A model generated the notes under the pieces. It saw nothing but the letters and a program-made list of their open reading frames with translations. It was not told the origin of the DNA and did no database searches. A stretch of 64,000 nucleotides of DNA from Escherichia coli O157:H7. GTDB lineage: Bacteria; Pseudomonadota; Gammaproteobacteria; Enterobacterales; Enterobacteriaceae. This document shows, in pieces, positions 5,716-55,240 of the stretch (the first letter of the stretch is position 1; the number at the start of each line of letters is the position of its first letter). The stretch is from NCBI RefSeq assembly GCF_013167455.1, contig NZ_CP038328.1. The stretch is one strand, 5' to 3'. The translations under genes were made by a program, and so were the position numbers.

Positions 5716-5976
5716 TTACTGACGAGGATGCTTCAATAACTTCTTTACGTAATCGCGCAGCAGCTCCGTATCGTCGTCAGGAATGCTGGCATCGGGCTTT
5801 ACCTCGTACAGCGCCCCCTCTACCTGATCAATCAACCGCTGTTGGTCATTTTGCGCCATATTGCGAAGCATTGCAGTGACGATAATCTCCAAAGCTTCTA
5901 CCTGCGCACACAGTTCTTTCGACTCTTCTTCTTTTTGGGCAAGCTTAAATAACAACTCAGCAATGAGATTTTTCAT
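5716..5976 (-). CDS. iraP: Anti-adaptor protein IraP (86 aa)
   Basis: [32 protein letters not shown]... coiled-coil small protein; position upstream of phoA. Confidence 0.85.
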
Positions 5977-6438
5977 GTCTGTATTTCCTTATCCAAAGTA
6001 TGGAGAAGTTAACATTATGTTTCACAACTTCATAGTGTCTGGAGGTATTATTTTTATGGCAAAGGAAATACTTTGCGCAAATATTTTTTGTTTGATTACC
6101 AGCGAAACGTTTCTCTTATTTAAATAATTACCCACACAAAACATAGGCTTTTAATTATCAACCTTTATTATAAATAAAAGTTATGAAATATATTCTCTTC
6201 GTTAACTTATAATTAAGAGAAAAAAACTCACCGCATGGCCATTTAAGCCAGGAATAAATTAGCTTCCCGTTCATCATTTTTGTGATCTTGCGCACATCTT
6301 TGAGATAACGCACTTTCTTCACCAGTACGTTGCACGCTTTGTCAGCAGAAGATTGCAACAATCTTTCAGAAGGCCGCGAATCCCCCGTTTTGTCGTGGTA
6401 ATGTATGCACTTTGTGTTAGACGGGATAGGTTTTTAAG

Positions 6439-20907: not shown

Positions 20908-21209
20908 GATTGTCTGCTCCCCTGTCTTGTTATGGGAGCAGTATTTCGTTGCGGGTCAGTTTGATAAAGGAATTAAAAGGTCTTGTTAAGAACAAAGCGT
21001 TTTTAGAAAAAAATCGGCAATGGTTAGCGAGTTTGCGCATTTTGCGGTTTTGGCGAACGTATCCCGCCGGTTCACAAGCCAGATAAGATGTGCGCGCTCC
21101 GGCAAATTATTGCCATTTTGTTACATCCATTCCATATCTGTCGCTGGTTGATTGCCAGCGCCGCGCCGTGATGCATGATAGGAGAATTAGATAATAAGAG
21201 AAGAAAAGT

Positions 21210-21839
21210 ATGATTCGGGTAGTGCTGGTGGATGACCATGTTGTGGTGCGCTCTGGCTTCGCACAATTACTCTCTCTGGAAGACGATCTGGAGGTCATTG
21301 GTCAGTACAGTAGTGCCGCGCAGGCATGGTCGGCATTAATCCGTGATGACGTCAATGTTGCCGTCATTGATATTGCCATGCCGGACGAAAACGGCCTCAG
21401 TTTGCTTAAGCGCCTGCGTGCACAAAAACCGCAATTTCGCGCCATTATTCTTAGCATTTATGACGCGCCAACCTTTGTGCAAAGCGCGCTGGATGCCGGT
21501 GCCAGCGGGTATTTAACCAAACGCTGTGGGCCGGAAGAGTTAGTACAGGCGGTGCGCTCGGTCGGGCTGGGCGGGCATTATCTCTGTGCCGATGCGATTC
21601 GGGCTTTACGCGGCGGCGGGCAACCCGCCCAGGCGCTGGAAATTCTCACCCCACGAGAACGTGAAGTGTTTGAGTTACTGGTCAAAGGAGACAGCGTTAA
21701 AGAGATCGCCTTTAAACTCGAACTCAGTCATAAAACGGTACATGTGCATCGCGCCAATGTGCTGGGAAAACTGAACTGCCATAGCACCATTGAACTGGTA
21801 CATTTTGCGCTCGACCACCATCTGCTGGCGGGGCATTAA
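21210..21839 (+). CDS. UhpA-like NarL/LuxR-family response regulator (209 aa)
   Basis: MIRVVLVDDHVVVRSGFAQLL... receiver domain plus C-terminal LuxR HTH; strongly resembles UhpA along its length. Confidence 0.85.
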   Translation: MIRVVLVDDHVVVRSGFAQLLSLEDDLEVIGQYSSAAQAWSALIRDDVNVAVIDIAMPDENGLSLLKRLRAQKPQFRAIILSIYDAPTFVQSALDAGASGYLTKRCGPEELVQAVRSVGLGGHYLCADAIRALRGGGQPAQALEILTPREREVFELLVKGDSVKEIAFKLELSHKTVHVHRANVLGKLNCHSTIELVHFALDHHLLAGH

Positions 21840-23380
21840 TGTCGCGCAATCTTCGTCATTGGGTGATTTTGCTGTTTATTGTGCTAGCCTGGGGAACCGG
21901 CTGGCTGATGCTGTGGACGCTCAGCTTTTATCTGACCAATAACGGTCAACAGGCGGTGTTGTTTCTCCCGCAGGGAGTTTATCTCGCCCTTGTTATTTTG
22001 CTCTCTCGCCGCTACTGGCCTGCGTTGGTGCTCCCCCCTTTGCTGATGATGTTCTGGCTCCATAGTGAACAGCTATTGAACGGTTATCTCATGCTGGCAA
22101 CGCCGGTTATTAGCCTGTTTCCTGCCCTCCTTGCGCAAAACTTCTGGCACCGTTTTCCACTTTACTGGCAGCGTCTGACGTTGCTGTTAGCCACTGTCAC
22201 GGCAGCTTCATTGTTGAATACCGCCCTGCTCTCCCCTTTTATGTCAGGCCCAATAATGCTACCGGGTTTGACCTCATTTACCGGCGGCGTATTACTGACG
22301 CCGTTTGTCTATCTTATCTTTGAGTTTCTGCGCCAGCAGCATCGCTACCAGCTCCTGGGACTCGATACGCATAATCCCCCCTTGCGTACCTCTTTAATCA
22401 TCTGGTGTAGCCTGTTTTTTATTATTGGTATCGGCACTCAGATGGTGCTGTCACCTGAAATTGAACGTCTGCTGTTGATCGTGGTCTTTTTGCCCAATGT
22501 GGTGATGGCGTGGAAATTTGGCTGGCAAGGTGGCGTACTCTCCGGGCTTTTGGGCAGCATGATGATCACCATCGCCCGCCAGATTGGCGTGGGCTTTAGT
22601 AACCTGGTGGAGCTGGAGATTTTCCTCGCGACCCAGGCCTTGCTGGGAATTGGCCTGGGCATTGCCATCAGTCGCCAGCAACATCTGGCGCTAAACCTGC
22701 ACCATTACCGACAACGGCTGGAGGCCGAGCTGGCAGCGCGGCGGGCATTGGCGGAAAAGCTGATCCACACCGAGGAGGACACGCGAAAAAACCTGGCGCG
22801 AGAGCTGCACGACGAAATCGGTCAGAACATCACCGCCATTCAGATCCAGTCGCAACTGGTGAAGCGGGCGCGTGATCCGGCGCAAATTCAATCCGCAGCC
22901 AGCCAAATCAATGAGCTCGCCCGCCGCATTCATCTCTCCACCCGCCAATTGCTGCGCCAGTTGCGGCCTCCCGCGCTTGATGAACTGACATTTCGCGAAG
23001 CGTTGCTGCATCTGATTAATGAATTTGCCTTTAGTGAACGCGGCATTCATTGCCAGTTTGCCTATCAACTGAACTCCACACCAGAAAACGAAACGGTGCG
23101 CTTTACCTTGTATCGGTTATTGCAGGAGTTGCTCAATAACATCTGTAAACACGCCGAAGCCAGCGAAGTGACGATTATCCTGCGCCAGCAGGGAGAGGTA
23201 TTGCATCTGGAAGTCAGCGACAACGGTGTGGGGATCGCCAGCGGGAAAATGGCTGGATTTGGCATTCAGGGGATGCGTGAGCGCGTCAGCGCCCTGGGCG
23301 GCGACTTAACGCTCGAAAAACAGCACGGCACGCGGGTAATTGTTAACTTGCCCACATTTTTGCAACAAATCGCCGGATAA
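21839..23380 (+). CDS. UhpB-like sensor histidine kinase (membrane N-terminal domain plus HisKA_3/HATPase), 513 aa
   Basis: Hydrophobic N-terminal half, H-box LARELHDEIGQ, C-terminal ATPase; resembles UhpB. Start overlaps the regulator stop. Confidence 0.85.
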   Translation: MSRNLRHWVILLFIVLAWGTGWLMLWTLSFYLTNNGQQAVLFLPQGVYLALVILLSRRYWPALVLPPLLMMFWLHSEQLLNGYLMLATPVISLFPALLAQNFWHRFPLYWQRLTLLLATVTAASLLNTALLSPFMSGPIMLPGLTSFTGGVLLTPFVYLIFEFLRQQHRYQLLGLDTHNPPLRTSLIIWCSLFFIIGIGTQMVLSPEIERLLLIVVFLPNVVMAWKFGWQGGVLSGLLGSMMITIARQIGVGFSNLVELEIFLATQALLGIGLGIAISRQQHLALNLHHYRQRLEAELAARRALAEKLIHTEEDTRKNLARELHDEIGQNITAIQIQSQLVKRARDPAQIQSAASQINELARRIHLSTRQLLRQLRPPALDELTFREALLHLINEFAFSERGIHCQFAYQLNSTPENETVRFTLYRLLQELLNNICKHAEASEVTIILRQQGEVLHLEVSDNGVGIASGKMAGFGIQGMRERVSALGGDLTLEKQHGTRVIVNLPTFLQQIAG

Positions 23381-23422
23381 CCAGGAAAAAGTCTTAGGTA
23401 TCCCGGATTTTCTCTCATCCCC

Positions 23423-23445
23423 TTTCACTTTCATTTTCATATAGT
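23423..23445 (+). promoter_or_regulatory. Candidate activator-dependent promoter: three direct TTTCA(C/T) repeats, then -10 TATAGT with a poor -35
   Basis: Read directly in the 72-bp gap between the kinase and the UhpC-like gene; a GGAG RBS follows 6 nt before the 23465 ATG. Confidence 0.35.
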
Positions 23446-23464
23446 CAGCAACATGGAGACAACC

Positions 23465-24769
23465 ATGCACGCGCGTTCAGCGAGAGAAATTAATCAATGC
23501 TACCGGACATTACGTCCGCGATTGCTGATGTGCATGATTATTGGCTACGCCGCATTTTATCTGACGCGAAAAAGCGTGAATTACGTCCTTCCGGCGCTAC
23601 AAACCGACCTCGGACTGGATAAAGGCGACATTGGCCTGCTGGGTTCGCTGTTTTATCTCAGCTACGGATTGTCGAAATTTACCGCCGGACTGTGGCATGA
23701 CAGCCACGGACAACGCGGTTTTATGGGCGTCGGCTTGTTCGCCACCGGGTTATTGAACGTGGTGTTTGCCTTTGGCGAATCACTTACGCTTCTGCTTGTG
23801 GTCTGGACACTGAACGGTTTTTTTCAGGGCTGGGGATGGCCACCGTGTGCCCGCTTGCTGACCCACTGGTACTCACGCAATGAGCGCGGTTTCTGGTGGG
23901 GCTGCTGGAATATGTCGATCAACATTGGCGGAGCGATTATTCCGCTGATTAGCGCCTTTGCCGCCCACTGGTGGGGCTGGCAGGCCGCGATGCTGACACC
24001 GGGGATAATCAGCATGGCATTAGGGATCTGGTTAACGCTACAACTCAAAGGCACGCCCCAGGAAGAGGGATTACCGACAGTTGGTCACTGGCGTCACGAT
24101 CCGCTGGAGTTACGTCAGGAACAACAAAGTCCGCCGATGGGGCTGTGGCAAATGTTGCGCACCACCATGCTGCAAAATCCGCTGATCTGGCTACTGGGCG
24201 TCTCATATGTACTGGTTTATGTGATCCGGATTGCGCTTAACGACTGGGGCAATATCTGGCTGACGGAAAGCCACGGTGTCAACCTGCTCAGCGCCAACGC
24301 CACGGTAATGCTGTTTGAAGTGGGCGGCTTACTCGGCGCGTTATTTGCCGGATGGGGATCGGATTTGCTGTTTAGCGGGCAACGAGCGCCAATGATTTTG
24401 CTGTTCACGTTGGGGTTGATGGTGTCAGTCGCCGCACTGTGGCTGGCACCGGTTCATCACTACGCTCTGCTGGCAGTGTGCTTTTTTACCGTGGGCTTTT
24501 TCGTCTTTGGCCCACAAATGCTGATTGGACTTGCGGCGGTGGAGTGTGGGCACAAAGCTGCGGCGGGTTCAATCACCGGATTTCTCGGCCTGTTCGCTTA
24601 CCTTGGCGCGGCGCTGGCAGGCTGGCCGCTGTCGCTGGTCATCGAACGCTACGGCTGGCCGGGAATGTTCAGTTTACTCTCGGTCGCCGCAGTACTTATG
24701 GGTTTACTGCTGATGCCGTTACTGATGGCGGGCATCACCACCACTCACGCTCGAAGGATAAAACAATGA
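23465..24769 (+). CDS. UhpC-like MFS membrane sensor (organophosphate:Pi antiporter family), about 434 aa
   Basis: 12-TM MFS protein with strong resemblance to UhpC (FYLTRKS..., GPQMLIG...). Start at 23465 preferred over 23453 because of the RBS. Confidence 0.85.
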   Translation: MHARSAREINQCYRTLRPRLLMCMIIGYAAFYLTRKSVNYVLPALQTDLGLDKGDIGLLGSLFYLSYGLSKFTAGLWHDSHGQRGFMGVGLFATGLLNVVFAFGESLTLLLVVWTLNGFFQGWGWPPCARLLTHWYSRNERGFWWGCWNMSINIGGAIIPLISAFAAHWWGWQAAMLTPGIISMALGIWLTLQLKGTPQEEGLPTVGHWRHDPLELRQEQQSPPMGLWQMLRTTMLQNPLIWLLGVSYVLVYVIRIALNDWGNIWLTESHGVNLLSANATVMLFEVGGLLGALFAGWGSDLLFSGQRAPMILLFTLGLMVSVAALWLAPVHHYALLAVCFFTVGFFVFGPQMLIGLAAVECGHKAAAGSITGFLGLFAYLGAALAGWPLSLVIERYGWPGMFSLLSVAAVLMGLLLMPLLMAGITTTHARRIKQ

Positions 24770-25797
24770 AAATGACCTTTACCTCTACTCTGATTGCTTC
24801 TGCCGTTGCGCTGGCGACTTTAACGGGTGCCGCGCAGGCAAAAGGCCGGCTGGTGGTCTATTGCAGCGCCACCAATGAAATGTGTGAGGCCGAAACCAAA
24901 GCGTTTGGCGAGAAATATGATGTAAAAACCTCGTTTATCCGCAACGGTTCCGGAAGCACCCTGGCAAAAGTCGATGCTGAAAAGAAAAACCCCCAGGCTG
25001 ACGTCTGGTACGGCGGCACTTTAGACCCGCAATCGCAGGCTGGCGAGATGGGCCTGCTACAGGCGTATAAATCCCCTAACCTTGAGCAGATCATGGAGAA
25101 ATTCCGCGATCCGGCAAAAGTGAAAGGGAATCTGTCCTCTGCCGTTTATGTGGGGATCCTCGGTTTTGGCGTAAACACCGATCGTCTGAAAGAGAAAAAC
25201 CTGCCGGTGCCGAAGTGCTGGAAAGATCTCACCAAACCGGAATATAAAGGCGAAATTCAAATTGCCGATCCGCAAAGTTCCGGTACTGCCTACACCGCCC
25301 TGGCTACTTTTGCGCAGCTGTGGGGGGAAGATCAGGCCTTTGATTATCTAAAACAACTGAACGCCAACGTCTCTCAGTACACCAAATCAGGCATAGCCCC
25401 GGCACGTAACGCCGCCCGTGGCGAAACGGCGATTGGTATTGGCTTCCTGCATGACTACTCGCTGGAAAAAGAACAGGGCGCGCCGCTGGAGTTGATTTCC
25501 CCGTGTGAAGGTACGGGCTACGAAATTGGCGGCGTCAGCATTCTGAAAGGCGCGCGCAACCTCGACAACGCCAAACTGTTTGTGGACTGGGTATTATCAA
25601 AAGAAGCTCAGGAACTGGCGTGGAAGAAAGGGAAGTCTTATCAGATCCTGACTAATACCACCGCCGAAACGTCGCCAAATTCGCTGAAGCTCGACGACCT
25701 GAAATTAATCAACTACGACATGGATAAATATGGTTCCACGGATGTTCGTAAGGCATTGATTAATAAATGGGTCAGCGAAGTGAAGATGGGTAAATAA
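24766..25797 (+). CDS. AfuA/FbpA-family periplasmic substrate-binding protein (343 aa)
   Basis: Signal peptide MKMTFTSTLIASAVALATLTGAAQA then SBP fold; ATG overlaps the UhpC-like stop (ATGA). The long listed ORF 24439.. is an upstream extension. Confidence 0.8.
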   Translation: MKMTFTSTLIASAVALATLTGAAQAKGRLVVYCSATNEMCEAETKAFGEKYDVKTSFIRNGSGSTLAKVDAEKKNPQADVWYGGTLDPQSQAGEMGLLQAYKSPNLEQIMEKFRDPAKVKGNLSSAVYVGILGFGVNTDRLKEKNLPVPKCWKDLTKPEYKGEIQIADPQSSGTAYTALATFAQLWGEDQAFDYLKQLNANVSQYTKSGIAPARNAARGETAIGIGFLHDYSLEKEQGAPLELISPCEGTGYEIGGVSILKGARNLDNAKLFVDWVLSKEAQELAWKKGKSYQILTNTTAETSPNSLKLDDLKLINYDMDKYGSTDVRKALINKWVSEVKMGK

Positions 25798-25865
25798 ACC
25801 CGCATTAGGCGCATTTGCCGGGTGCAGCGCAGACGCCTGCCCCGGCCAACCATACCGGAACTGCT

Positions 25866-27944
25866 ATGTCACAGACACTTGCACTCCATCCCGTGAAAAA
25901 GCGGGATGCGATTTTCCTTTGGGTTTTGCTGGGCTGGCTGGCATTTGTCCTGTTGCCGAGCTGGAGCCTCGATTATGGCCTGCTGGAATCCACGAGTGAT
26001 GAGATCCTCGGGGCGTACGGCTGGTCGCATTTTAATATCAGCTGGCTGTGGTATTTACTCCCGAGCCTGTTGCTGGTCCGCCCGTTTCGTCAGGCCACGC
26101 GCGAACAGCGTAGTCGTCATTATTTCGATGCCGGCTGGGCATTGCTCTGTATGGCGTTTATCGTCATCAGCGCCACCGTGGCTGGACGCGGTTTAGGCTA
26201 CGCCGCCATCGTGCTGTTTGTCGAACTAGGCGCGATTATGACGCTGGCCTTAACCCGCCTCGAATGGCTGGGCGGCGACCGCTTCGTGATCGGCTCACTG
26301 ATTGCGATTGTGGCGCTGATTGGCATTTTTATCGTCTGGCCGAGCATCGCCATTTTTATCCCGATGTTCACCAACGACGCGGGAGAGCTCGCCCCGCTGG
26401 CGTTTATGACCGTGCTCTCGCAGGCACATATTGTTCAGGTGATCGTCAACTCTATCGTCTTGTCGATAGCGGTGGGGATAGGCTGTGCTTTCTTCGGCCT
26501 GGTGCTGGCGATTTATACCACGCGCATCGCTAAACGCAGCGCCATTATTGGTCGCATCTTTTCCATTTTGCCCATCGTTACGCCACCGTTTGTGGTCGGC
26601 TTAGGCGTGACGCTCATGATGGGGCGTTCCGGCTATGTTACGGAATTTATGGTGGAGTGGTTTGGGCTGACCAACACCAACTGGCTGTACGGTTTTACCG
26701 GGATCTGGCTGGCACAGGTTCTGGCATTCACGCCAATGGCATTTATGATCCTCGACGGGGCCATTAAAACCATTCATCCCTCGCTGGAAGAGGCCTCCTA
26801 CACCCTGCGCGCCAGCCGCTGGCAAACCTTTAACGGCGTGTTTGTGCCGTTGTTGAAGCCCGCGCTCGCCAATGCCTTTTTAATCGTCGTGGTACAGTCA
26901 CTGGCTGATTTCAGTAACCCGCTGGTACTTGGCGGTAACTTCGACGTACTGGCGACGCAAATTTACTTCTATATTACCGGCTCGCAGCTGGATTATCAGG
27001 CCGCCAGCACCCTTGGCGCTTTCCTGCTGCTGTTCTCGCTGCTGGTGTTCTGCATACAGTATATGTGGATTGGTAAACGCTCTTACGTCACGGTTTCCGG
27101 CAAATCCTACCGTGGCGACGTCCAGCCGCTTCCGGTCACCCTGGTGTGGAGCGTGGTCGCCATACTTGCGATATGGATTGCCTTTAACGCCCTGCTCTAC
27201 GGCAGCATTTTCTACGGCAGCTTCACGGTGAACTGGGGCGTGGACTACACCCTGACGCTGGATAACTTTATCAAGCTATTTGGTCAGGGAATGAGCGACG
27301 GCGCGTGGCCTTCACTGCTGGATACCCTGCTCTACGCCGGGATTGCCGCTCCCATTACCGCTATCTTTGGCCTGCTCATCGCCTGGGTGGTGGTGCGTCA
27401 ACAATTCAAAGGCAAAAAGACCATCGAGTTCACCACCATGCTGTGCTTTGCCGTACCGGGTACGGTGGCGGGCGTTTCGTATATTCTTGCCTTTAACAGC
27501 GCTCCGGTTTATCTCACCGGAACGGCGGCAATTGTGATTATCTCGATGGTGATGCGTAACGTTCCGGTGGGTATTCGCGCCGGGATTGCAGGCCTGGGGC
27601 AGATCGACAAATCGCTGGATGAAGCCTCACTCAGCCTGCGCGCGGGTTCCTTGCGAACCATAACCCACATTTTACTGCCGCTGCTGCGTCCGGCCATTCT
27701 CTCGGCCCTGATCTACAGCTTTGTGCGGGCCATCACGACGGTCAGCGCCATCGTCTTTCTCGTCACGCCGGACACCCGCGTGGCAACCGCCTACATTCTT
27801 AACCGCGTTGAAGACGGCGAATATGGCGTAGCCATCGCCTATGGTTCGATTCTGATCGTGGTGATGCTGGCGATTATTTTCCTCTTTGACTGGCTGATCG
27901 GAGAAGCACGTATCTCCCGTTCTAAAGCCAAAAACCAGGCGTAA
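25866..27944 (+). CDS. AfuB-type ABC permease with two fused transmembrane domains (about 692 aa)
   Basis: Large polytopic protein typical of FbpB/AfuB-type permeases; ATG at 25866 preferred over the TTG-initiated listed ORF. Confidence 0.8.
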
Positions 27945-27955
27945 TGGAGCGCACT

Positions 27956-29002
27956 ATGAGTCAGAAAAATTTTGTGGAACTGCGCAACGTCACTAAACGA
28001 TTCGGCAGTAATACGGTTATCGACAATATCAATCTCACCATCCCACAAGGGCAAATGGTGACGCTGCTTGGCCCTTCCGGCTGCGGCAAAACCACCATTT
28101 TGCGTCTGGTTGCCGGGCTGGAAAAACCGAGTGAAGGGCAAATCTTTATTGATGGCGAAGATGTCACGCATCGTTCCATTCAGCAGCGCGATATCTGCAT
28201 GGTGTTTCAGTCATACGCTCTGTTCCCGCATATGTCGCTGGGCGAAAACGTCGGCTACGGGTTAAAGATGCTCGGCGTGTCGCGTAGCGAAGTAAAGCAG
28301 CGGGTGAAAGAGGCGCTGGCAATGGTGGATCTGGAAGGGTTCGAGGACCGCTATGTCGACCAGATTTCCGGTGGTCAGCAACAGCGCGTGGCGCTGGCCC
28401 GCGCGTTGATCCTCAAACCAAAGGTGCTGCTGTTTGATGAGCCGTTAAGTAACCTCGATGCCAACCTGCGCCGCAGCATGCGCGATAAGATCCGCGAGCT
28501 GCAAAAGCAGTTTAATATCACGTCGCTCTACGTGACTCACGATCAAAGTGAGGCCTTCGCGGTTTCCGACACTGTGCTGGTGATGAATAAAGGTCACATC
28601 ATGCAGATTGGCTCACCGCAGGATCTCTATCGTCAGCCAGCCTCCCGCTTTATGGCAAGTTTTATGGGCGACGCCAACCTGTTCCCGGCGAACTTTAGCG
28701 AAGAGTATGTCGATATCTACGGTTATCGCCTGCCGCGCGCGGCGCATTTCCCGGTGCAAGGTAGCGGCACCGTCGGCGTTCGCCCGGAAGCCATCACCTT
28801 AAGCAATCACGGCGAAGAGAGTCAGCGTTGTGTTATTCGCCATGTCGCCTACATGGGGCCGCAGTACGAAGTGACCGTAGAGTGGCATGGACAGGAGATT
28901 TTATTACAAGTAAACGCCACCCGTTTACAGCCCGATATTGGTGAGCACTATTACCTCGAAATCCATCCTTACGGGATGTTTGTTTTAGCGGATGCGGCAT
29001 AA
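27956..29002 (+). CDS. AfuC-type ABC ATP-binding protein (about 348 aa; alternative start 27944)
   Basis: Walker [10 protein letters not shown], signature [15 protein letters not shown], Walker B LLFDEP; GGAG RBS upstream of 27956. Confidence 0.85.
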
Positions 29003-53991: not shown

Positions 53992-55240
53992 TGTTAGCCT
54001 CCACATGCGTCATTGCTGCTGTCGTTTTACGATTCAAAATCGGGTTAAGGATCAGATAGCTCAGCGCGCCACCTAATACCGCGTTGACCGGAACAATTCC
54101 CGGTAACCAGTGGCCTGCAGCAATCCCCAGGGCGACCGCCAGAATCGCCACCCAATTGACACTCATCATACGCGTGGTCGCAAAGTGCTCATAGCGGCGA
54201 CGGTTCATCAGATAGTCGGCAATGATCACGCCACCCACTGGAGGAATAGCTGCCGAAAGGAAGGTCAACCAGCCGACAAAATTGTTATACAGCCATAATG
54301 CACAGACCGTACCGATAATACCGTTGATTACCGAAAGGGTTTTGCTCGACATCCCGGTAATGTTGGCGAAACCTAAACCCGACGCATAGAGCGCGTTATC
54401 GTTGGTGGTCCAGATATTTAGCCCCAGCACCACAATCGCAGGCAACAGCAGGCCCTGAGCAATCATCACATCAGAGATATCCGCCATCCCCAGTGCCGCA
54501 GCGCCCGCTGCACCGAAAATAAACATCAACGAGTTGCCGAGGAAAAAGGCCACCATCGCCACCAGCACCGCCAGTTTGGCATTGCGACCAAAGCGGACAA
54601 AGTCAGCGGTGAGCGTGCCCGCACTGATAAATGACCCCACAACCAGCGCCAGCGCGACATTGAAATCTAACGGTTGTGCGGGAACGACCGCTTTTAAGGC
54701 GTCCAGGCCGCCCATGCCGTTAACGGCCAGCCACACGGAATAACCGCCAAGACAGGCGATAGCCGGAACCGCAATCAACGAAAGAACCGTCAGCGCCGAA
54801 ATGCCAAAGAAGACGGTGACGGTCATCAGTAAACCGGAAACGGCAATCAGCAAATTAATATCCAGCCCGGTTGCCTTGCCCACCGGAATAGCAAACATCG
54901 CCACACCGACGCCAAACCAGCCAACCTGGGTGCCGCCCAGCAGCAGTGAAGGCAGCCATGAGCCTTTAACACCAAACGAGAAGCGAGCAAGAAGATGAGT
55001 GGTCAGGCCGGTTTTTGCGCCAATGTAACCGAGAAATGAAGTGTAAATACCGAGGAGAAGATTACCGATGAGAACTGCGAGGAAGAAATCATGATAGCTA
55101 AGACCGGTTCCGAGAGTGCCGCCGGTCCACATACTGGCGGAAAAGAAGGTTAATCCCAGCATGACGAACGTCAATGCCAATACCCCTTTCCGCGCCGACT
55201 GCGGGACCGGCCCCTGGCTAAAGTTGTTATCTTGCGACAC
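53981..55240 (-). CDS. codB: Cytosine permease (NCS1 family)
   Basis: 419 aa polytopic membrane protein. Confidence 0.9.

Follow-up and report, generated by a model that had tools for sequence, protein, structure and literature searches.

The window analysed here, a stretch of 64,000 nucleotides, is identical to E. coli O157:H7 chromosomes, and its tauA-frmR interval corresponds to the island OI-20, in which fusR (UhpA-like), fusK (UhpB-like), z0461 (UhpC-like) and afuABC follow one another in this order. The gene fusR (Z0463; 21210-21839, plus strand) encodes a UhpA-like response regulator of the NarL family, whose top NCBIfam match is UhpA, with 194 bits against an equivalog cutoff of 258, and which is 49% identical to K-12 UhpA, the recognition-helix segment KTVHVHRAN being the same in both proteins. 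The gene fusK (Z0462; 21839-23380, plus strand) encodes a UhpB-like MASE1 histidine kinase, annotated in RefSeq as a MASE1 sensor histidine kinase, with UhpB as its top NCBIfam match (379 bits, equivalog cutoff 408). Because both proteins score below the equivalog cutoffs of UhpA and UhpB, FusR and FusK are, judged from their sequences, a sister or paralogous system and not the canonical Uhp system itself.

The third gene, z0461 (23465-24769, plus strand), encodes a UhpC-like MFS glucose-6-phosphate receptor and is the first gene of its operon; its product passes the 564-bit cutoff of the NCBIfam UhpC subfamily with 587.7 bits and is 52-57% identical to K-12 UhpC. It is followed on the same strand by the RefSeq genes afuA (24766-25797), afuB (25866-27944) and afuC (27956-29002), which together (24766-29002) encode a hexose/heptose-phosphate ABC importer. 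According to a previous study, AfuABC imports glucose-6-phosphate, fructose-6-phosphate and sedoheptulose-7-phosphate and contributes to gut colonisation by Citrobacter rodentium (PMC4546632). The start of afuA at 24766 overlaps the z0461 stop by 4 nt in the RefSeq coordinates, and 75 of the 79 loci measured have a spacing of -4 to +60 nt at this junction; the longer receptor-afuA gaps contain repeat-element insertions. As well, both z0461 and afuB (Z0459) were upregulated in published RNA-seq of bovine gut contents.

Transcription starts were taken from published Cappable-seq tables of strain EDL933, the window position being 467141 minus the EDL933 coordinate, a conversion that was confirmed on the sequence. 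For fusR-fusK, a promoter of the form TTGCCA-16-CATGAT (21152-21179, plus strand) was found by consensus scan, and Cappable-seq places its start at 21186. This start, EDL933 445955(-), and another at 446045(-), which is 21096 in the window, were detected in all eight conditions (PMC10469882 Table S5).

The gap between fusK and z0461 reads ...TAA CCAGGAAAAAGTCTTAGGTATCCCGGATTTTCTCTCATCCCC TTTCAC TTTCAT TTTCA-TATAGT CAGCAAC ATGGAGACAACC ATG. It contains three TTTCA(C/T) repeats (23423-23440, plus strand), namely TTTCAC at 23423-28, TTTCAT at 23429-34 and TTTCAT at 23435-40, and the final T of the third repeat doubles as the first T of the -10 hexamer TATAGT (T23440; hexamer at 23440-23445, plus strand), which was recognised from the sequence, from its conservation and by bTSSfinder. 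Further downstream on the plus strand (23455-23467), a GGAG Shine-Dalgarno sequence (23455-58) precedes an ATG (23465-67) that is supported by conservation and by RefSeq. The repeat 18-mer occurs a single time in the window; with a tolerance of two mismatches, the shuffles predict 0.04 matches, and a match turned up in 4 of 100 of them. No -35 hexamer is present, the candidates at a 16-18 bp spacer being TCCCCT, ATCCCC and CATCCC, and the TGn extension of the -10 is absent from the sequence. The '-35' given by bTSSfinder, tctcat, implies a spacer of 21 bp and for that reason is no working -35. The repeats, TATAGT, the missing -35, GGAG and the ATG, all named in the original prediction from this DNA, are thus present in the sequence. 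That prediction also gave the gap as 72 bp, which holds up to an in-frame ATG at 23453; up to the conserved ATG at 23465, the RefSeq start in most strains, the gap is 84 bp, so that the quoted length and the coordinates of the prediction imply different start codons. The gap RNA had no Rfam match, and the segment 23320-23470 folds no better than shuffles (z = -0.62). No terminator was found in the fusK-z0461 gap. A terminator-like hairpin at 23332-53 was considered and rejected, because one base, 23335, changes between the sequences and the base that it should pair with never does.

The primary start of the z0461-afuABC operon lies at 23453 on the plus strand (Cappable-seq, EDL933 443688(-), assigned to uhpC; PMC10469882), 8 nt past TATAGT, which is also the bTSSfinder -10 of this start ('tatagt'; PMC10469882 Table S9). 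The resulting leader is 12 nt long and carries GGAG. The start was detected in seven of the eight conditions and was called differentially regulated (PMC10469882 Tables S4, S5, S7). Its mean read scores in exponential phase were 11.8 in LB, 61.7 in MM, 0 in acid and 5.1 in salt, and in stationary phase 72.8, 422.9, 65.7 and 83.6, respectively, so it is active in ordinary media to which no hexose phosphate or fucose was added. The peak in stationary minimal medium fits catabolite control, because glucose is expected to be exhausted at that point. The fusK-z0461 gap holds a real promoter with a mapped start, which excludes read-through as the sole source of z0461 expression; the original prediction had proposed the mapping of the transcription start as a check, with read-through from the kinase gene as the alternative, and the primary start at 23453 removes that alternative.

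One scan of species-representative genomes gave 80 loci from about 25 genera, including Citrobacter, Klebsiella, Raoultella, Enterobacter, Serratia, Edwardsiella, Buttiauxella, Rahnella and Pectobacterium. The regulator, the kinase, the UhpC-like gene and afuABC stand in the same order in 80 of 80 loci, in keeping with the predicted placement of the UhpC-like receptor inside the regulated operon, unlike in canonical uhpABC, and the kinase-receptor gap measures about 84 bp in nearly all of them. When 78 orthologous gaps from about 25 genera were aligned, the invariant or near-invariant columns fell into four clusters, which are 23381-97 (S box), 23402-19 (W box), the T, A and final T of the -10, and GGAG with the ATG. 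Information content over the 78 gaps is 1.77 bits for the S box, 1.43 for the W box, 1.67 for the -10 and 1.63 for GGAG. Within the -10, T23440, A23441 and T23445 are invariant in 78 of 78 sequences, giving the signature TAnnnT, while 23456 is invariant and 23455 and the ATG are conserved in at least 90%.

The S box (23381-23397, plus strand), which begins directly after the kinase stop and is the most conserved segment of the gap, is a 17-bp inverted repeat of 7-3-7 form, CCAGGAAAAAGTCTTAG (CCAGGAA-AAA-GTCTTAG), centred at -64. Its counterpart in Buttiauxella is CCAGGAA-AAA-TTCCTGG, and that in Pectobacterium is a perfect palindrome, CTAGGAATTATTCCTAG (CTAGGAA-TTA-TTCCTAG). Apart from the O157 S box, nothing in the 64-kb window fits the box pattern CYARGAMNNNKTCYWRG exactly, and this box is predicted to be a high-affinity site for a FusR/UhpA-type dimer; no S-type box was found by regex upstream of fusR or of afuA in any locus searched. 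The W box (23402-23418, plus strand) was recognised from its conservation as a degenerate 7-3-7 repeat, CCCGGAT-TTT-CTCTCAT, centred at -43 and lying over the -35 position. Its segment TCTCATC (23413-23419) is mostly invariant across the 78 sequences, and the EHEC W box fits the box pattern only in part, at 9 of its 13 specified positions. As for the FusR site reported in ler, it is unlike the S box; it also agrees with the box pattern at 9 of 13 positions, and 21% of 5,000 ler shuffles reached at least that number, so that this chance-level match is uninformative as support for the S-box motif. FusR may bind DNA in at least two ways, unless the S box or the ler site has been wrongly assigned.

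Similar boxes are present in the promoter of uhpT. According to previous work, UhpA occupies adjacent strong and weak sites at uhpT, and the names S and W used here follow this literature, with the strong UhpA site upstream and the weak one downstream (PMC4790336). The centre of the -64 element of K-12 uhpT, CTAAGAAATTTTCCAGG, is identical to the reverse-complemented O157 S box at 14 of 17 positions. Downstream of it, K-12 uhpT reads GGACGCTATCTCAGGC, 19 nt and TACAAT, and the afu-type gaps read GGAyTTTCTCTCATCC, 19 nt and TATAGT, so that in afu-type loci and uhpT promoters alike the W box is followed after exactly 19 nt by the -10. The uhpT promoter of Plesiomonas consists of CTAGGAAATAGTCCTAG, 16 nt, TCTCATGT, 19 nt and TACACT, and the same plan is found in the uhpT promoters of an Enterobacter and of a second enterobacterial contig. 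The W site of the Enterobacter uhpT promoter itself fits the box pattern, 22 bp past the S box, which indicates that the downstream block is a second, weaker copy of the box. Scaled from the -10, the centres are CAP -103.5, S -64 and W -42 in K-12 uhpT, and CRP-like -103.5, S -63 and W -42 in EHEC.

The z0461 and E. coli uhpT promoters thus resemble each other in having a -10 without a -35, an inverted-repeat box near -64, a weaker TCTCA box over -50 to -32, the same distances of the boxes from the -10, and a CRP/CAP-type site 91.5 bp upstream of the -10, which at z0461 is a predicted site only. Their regulators, FusR and UhpA, have KTVHVHRAN in common, and because this segment is identical a shared box specificity would be expected; the genes downstream of both promoters import hexose phosphates. 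As we know from the Kadner laboratory, the uhpT promoter is UhpA-dependent and CAP-stimulated. On the other hand, the uhpT promoter drives the UhpT antiporter alone, whereas the z0461 promoter drives the ABC importer AfuABC together with a UhpC-like receptor; unlike the uhpT promoter, it is situated between the kinase and receptor genes, with the receptor in the regulated unit, and its CRP-like site is embedded in the kinase gene. S and W are 21 bp apart at z0461 and 22 at uhpT, the leader is 12 nt against about 40, and the unequal halves of the S box stand in opposite order. In addition, the canonical uhpT promoter is essentially silent without inducer, whereas the z0461 promoter is active without added inducer, and the published sign of its regulation is repression. 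Finally, the uhpT of Tatumella has none of the boxes, and no uhpABC was found within the 2 kb fetched on either side of it.

To express the shared layout as one pattern, a regex was written (box, 15-16 nt, TCTCA, 22 nt, TAnnnT) and 1.12 Mb were searched. It gave one match in 73 of the 80 afu-type loci, each time just ahead of the gene for the UhpC-like protein, and one match per canonical uhp locus, upstream of uhpT and on the correct strand, with no other match in the 1.12 Mb; the seven afu-type loci that it missed are single-base variants or carry insertions. The sensitivity of this search is partly circular, because the pattern was written with both promoter sets in view, and the absence of off-target matches is its only independent evidence. 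An nhmmer profile was also built from afu-type gaps alone, and it found the uhpT promoter of Plesiomonas with E = 7.5e-5; for K-12 and Enterobacter uhpT the values were non-significant (E = 2.2 and 4.4), with the best hits on the S box.

Upstream of the gap, the last codons of fusK appear to contain regulatory DNA (23336-23368, plus strand), as suggested by conservation at synonymous sites. Counted back from the stop, fusK codons 15 to 5 have 1.2-2.0 bits at their third positions, four-fold degenerate codons included, against 0.1-1.2 bits in the preceding 30 codons, even at conserved amino acids. Within this stretch lies a CRP-like 22-mer, AATTGTTAACTTGCCCACATTT (23338-23359, plus strand), a predicted site that shares 16 of its 22 positions, and 8 of the 10 core ones, with the CRP consensus; only two sites this good, this one included, are found in the 64 kb. 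Its centre is 91.5 bp upstream of the -10, or at -104.5 from the mapped start, which is the distance to the -10 of the known CAP site of K-12 uhpT, reported to be centred at -103 (PMC5352689). However, the second G of TGTGA is missing, and the conserved stretch, at 33 bp, is longer than a CRP site. From these sequence features, the odds that CRP binds 23338-59 are about even.

The original prediction had taken the three TTTCA(C/T) direct repeats as the sites through which the UhpA-like regulator activates, and had likened the layout to one with a poor -35 and repeats upstream. The repeats are real and unlikely to occur by chance in the window, and a looser TTTCnnTTTCACTTTC pattern is kept in Citrobacter, Klebsiella and Raoultella. 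Relative to the mapped start, however, they span -30 to -13 and take up the spacer that separates the -10 from the -35 position, rather than standing upstream of or at the -35, and their 6-bp period sets neighbouring units on different faces of the helix. With 0.78 bits over the 78 gaps, they are also the least conserved segment. The distance from TCTCATCC to the -10 is always 19 nt, while the sequence in between varies, being CCTTTCACTTTCATTTTCA in O157, CCTTTCGCTTTTATTTTCA in another E. coli, CTTTTACGCCGCGCCCGCC in an Enterobacter, GCCCGACAAAACACCCGCC in Rahnella and TTTTTAATTCGCATCCCCC in Pectobacterium. Two of the three units are broken even in another E. coli, and in Enterobacter, Rahnella and Pectobacterium the repeats are swapped for unrelated sequence of the same length, with the flanking promoter elements retained. 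Such repeats are absent from canonical uhpT promoters, and a contiguous 6-bp direct repeat is unlike the inverted heptamers that NarL/UhpA-family regulators bind. It is therefore very improbable that activation runs through the repeats. Their fixed length and free sequence mean that they behave as a free spacer, and by this comparative evidence the TTTCA repeats are a non-conserved spacer and not a regulator binding site. What may instead be read from the repeats is the opposite strand, on which a primary antisense start lies within them at 23426 (minus strand; Cappable-seq, EDL933 443715(+); PMC10469882 Tables S4/S6) in eight of eight conditions. Their reverse complement could supply the -10, GAAAAT (candidate, reverse complement of 23433-38, minus strand), of a promoter that fires into the fusK 3' end; this hexamer ends 7 nt upstream of the start, and a candidate -35, TTGTCT (reverse complement of 23457-62), stands 18 bp beyond. 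The two hexamers are weak, agreeing at 8 of 12 positions and lying under the threshold of the consensus scan, and conservation of the repeat sequence does not extend beyond E. coli. As AT-rich intergenic DNA often yields antisense starts without known function, this role of the repeats is regarded as possible but somewhat doubtful; it is compatible with the main explanation given below.

Two other accounts concern how z0461-afuABC is switched on. A gap without terminator and the tight spacing of the genes would allow the operon to be expressed by fusR-fusK read-through only, with no promoter of its own, but the 5'-triphosphate-enriched start at 23453, seen in seven of eight conditions with read scores from 0 to 423, and a -10 conserved at a fixed distance leave this account with next to no likelihood. 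A more serious one is that the promoter owes its activity to CRP or to a stationary-phase factor, and that FusR represses it from the S and W boxes. According to PMC6199705, which cites Pacheco 2012, z0461 is repressed by FusKR, and reviews describe repression of ler and of the fuc genes. Moreover, the W box overlies the -35 position, and the start is active without known inducer and peaks in stationary minimal medium. Against repression, a promoter with neither a -35 nor an extended -10 is unlikely to be strong alone. The boxes equal those of uhpT in sequence, spacing and position, and there the arrangement activates (PMC4790336). The conservation of this layout ahead of a sugar-phosphate importer in 80 species fits induction by the substrate, and we speculate that the higher z0461 expression reported for deletion mutants could in principle stem from a change in transcription reading through from fusR's own promoter. 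Repression by FusR is thus rather unlikely, and it is kept as the main rival because of the published repression, the inducer-free firing and the weak O157 W box.

Together with the homology to uhpT promoters, the conservation, the promoter elements, the start site and the operon structure described above, activation is preferred here, and the gap is probably an activator-dependent sigma-70 promoter, a paralogue of the uhpT promoter that drives z0461-afuABC. Counted from 23453, its anatomy comprises the CRP-like element at -104.5, the S box at -64, the W box at -43, the 19-bp spacer TTTCACTTTCATTTTCA and TATAGT. It has the marks of a uhpT-type promoter, a -10 without -35, a box at -64, a weak box and a start used in vivo, and a hexose-phosphate transporter downstream. 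The activator-type layout that was originally foreseen holds up at the level of sequence, with no usable -35 and a uhpT-like arrangement, although not with the repeats as its operators. Standing against the preferred explanation are the FusKR repression of z0461 stated in secondary sources (PMC6199705), the activity without added inducer and the poor EHEC W box.

By homology, a working mechanism is put forward here for how FusR binds, in which direction it regulates, what CRP contributes and which signal induces. The genes fusR-fusK would be transcribed from their own promoter, and read-through from them could provide a basal level of the UhpC-like receptor, because the gap has no terminator. 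On receiving a signal, phosphorylated FusR dimers would fill first the S box and afterwards the W box, and the bound FusR would recruit RNA polymerase to the promoter that lacks a -35, assisted by CRP-cAMP. The transcript from 23453 would then encode the UhpC-like receptor and the translationally coupled AfuABC. As the promoter lies upstream of z0461, the receptor gene is inside the regulated operon, and positive feedback would act on the receptor only and not on the kinase or the regulator. The contrast between such receptor feedback and a constitutive uhpABC had been foreseen in the original prediction.

FusKR of EHEC (Pacheco et al. 2012) refers to the same genes, Z0462/Z0463 in OI-20, and z0461 is a reported target. 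In the literature consulted, FusKR is described as fucose-sensing and as repressing ler, the fuc genes and z0461 (for z0461, PMC6199705), z0461 being regarded as a fucose-related transporter under FusKR repression, and no description of a binding site at z0461 was found there. In contrast to this picture, the sequence and comparative evidence here favours an activating layout of the Uhp type that serves a sugar-phosphate importer, and the cluster is distributed far more widely than O157:H7. Within the regulator family, NarL and NarP bind as dimers to 7-2-7 pairs of inverted heptamers, with tandem sites upstream of and overlapping the -35. The promoter described here is like theirs in the family of the regulator, in the inverted heptamer pairs and in their tandem placement, but its spacer is 3 bp (7-3-7) and its half-site is CYARGAM rather than TACYYMT.

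The start at 23453 was already listed in a published table (PMC10469882), and FusKR control of z0461 has been published. In literature searches, no published description was found of regulator sites at the z0461 promoter, nor of the box architecture, the embedded CRP-like element or the breadth of conservation. FusKR is a much-cited virulence regulator of EHEC, and no published account was found of how AfuABC is switched on. The model proposed here, a uhpT-type promoter with the receptor gene in the regulated unit and a CRP-like site in the kinase gene, is testable and names precise bases for mutation, and it also questions whether the primary signal is fucose or hexose phosphate.

Found in about 25 genera, the module is widespread and not a peculiarity of O157:H7. 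In a broader reading, which we consider to be as easily wrong as right, FusR-FusK-Z0461 would be a conserved Uhp-like hexose-phosphate sensor with this promoter as its native target, inducing AfuABC and, by positive feedback, its own receptor under catabolite control in at least 25 genera of Enterobacterales, and in EHEC the nearly identical boxes and the identical recognition helices would permit UhpA and FusR to cross-talk at uhpT and z0461. If this is true, the picture of an O157-specific fucose sensor that represses z0461 would need revision.

The 3' end of the kinase gene fusK carries a stretch (23336-23368) in which the synonymous codon positions are near-invariant over about 25 genera, a mark of regulatory DNA lying within the gene. 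A CRP-like site is found in this stretch, and so are two palindromes, GTTAAC and TTGCAA, with a spacing of 18 bp; as judged from these motifs, it is possible that a factor other than CRP acts here. Elsewhere in the 64-kb window, the sole other 16/22 match to the CRP consensus lies at 109-130, and the pattern of the S box, a predicted FusR-type site, was matched with one mismatch at 55098-55114.

In the EDL933 RefSeq annotation, the UhpC-like receptor gene uhpC (z0461) begins with the ATG at 23453, which is the same base as the mapped transcription start, so that the mRNA would be leaderless under this annotation. Other strains use the ATG at 23465, the conserved start, which is accompanied by GGAG. 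The two ATGs share a frame and give products of 438 or 434 aa, respectively, and most genera are without the upstream one.

Two further start sites have been published for EDL933. An antisense primary start site, detected in all 8 conditions (EDL933 443715, + strand; PMC10469882), corresponds to 23426 on the minus strand of the window and lies within the TTTCA repeats, with a weak promoter (TTGTCT-18-GAAAAT, hexamers inferred from sequence) on the reverse complement. RNA from this site would cross the W and S boxes, the predicted regulator sites, and run antisense into the fusK 3' end. As well, an internal start site within afuA (25604; EDL933 441537, - strand), about 260 nt upstream of afuB, could serve as a secondary promoter for afuBC.

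FusKR has been called O157:H7-specific in reviews. About 25 Enterobacterales genera (related loci L003-L082) carry the six-gene cluster, as do 519 of the 5,426 complete E. coli genomes, a genome being counted if the 4-kb query (window 21000-25000) was matched over 80% or more of its length. The cluster has been invaded by ERIC-like repeat elements in some of these loci. In L018 (Raoultella planticola) the insertion (5722-6001) splits the promoter by separating the W box from the -10. The insertion in L070 is located in the 5' leader, and those in L067, L079, L080, and L082 (one Klebsiella and several Pectobacterium species) separate the UhpC-like gene from afuA. Moreover, the kinase gene is apparently interrupted or truncated in L010, L046, L050, and L059; in L050 (Citrobacter koseri), the regulator gene and the afu genes seem degraded as well, and the S box has lost its first base through a deletion. 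The apparent damage to the kinase genes, together with the apparent degradation in Citrobacter koseri, suggests that the system is decaying in some lineages.
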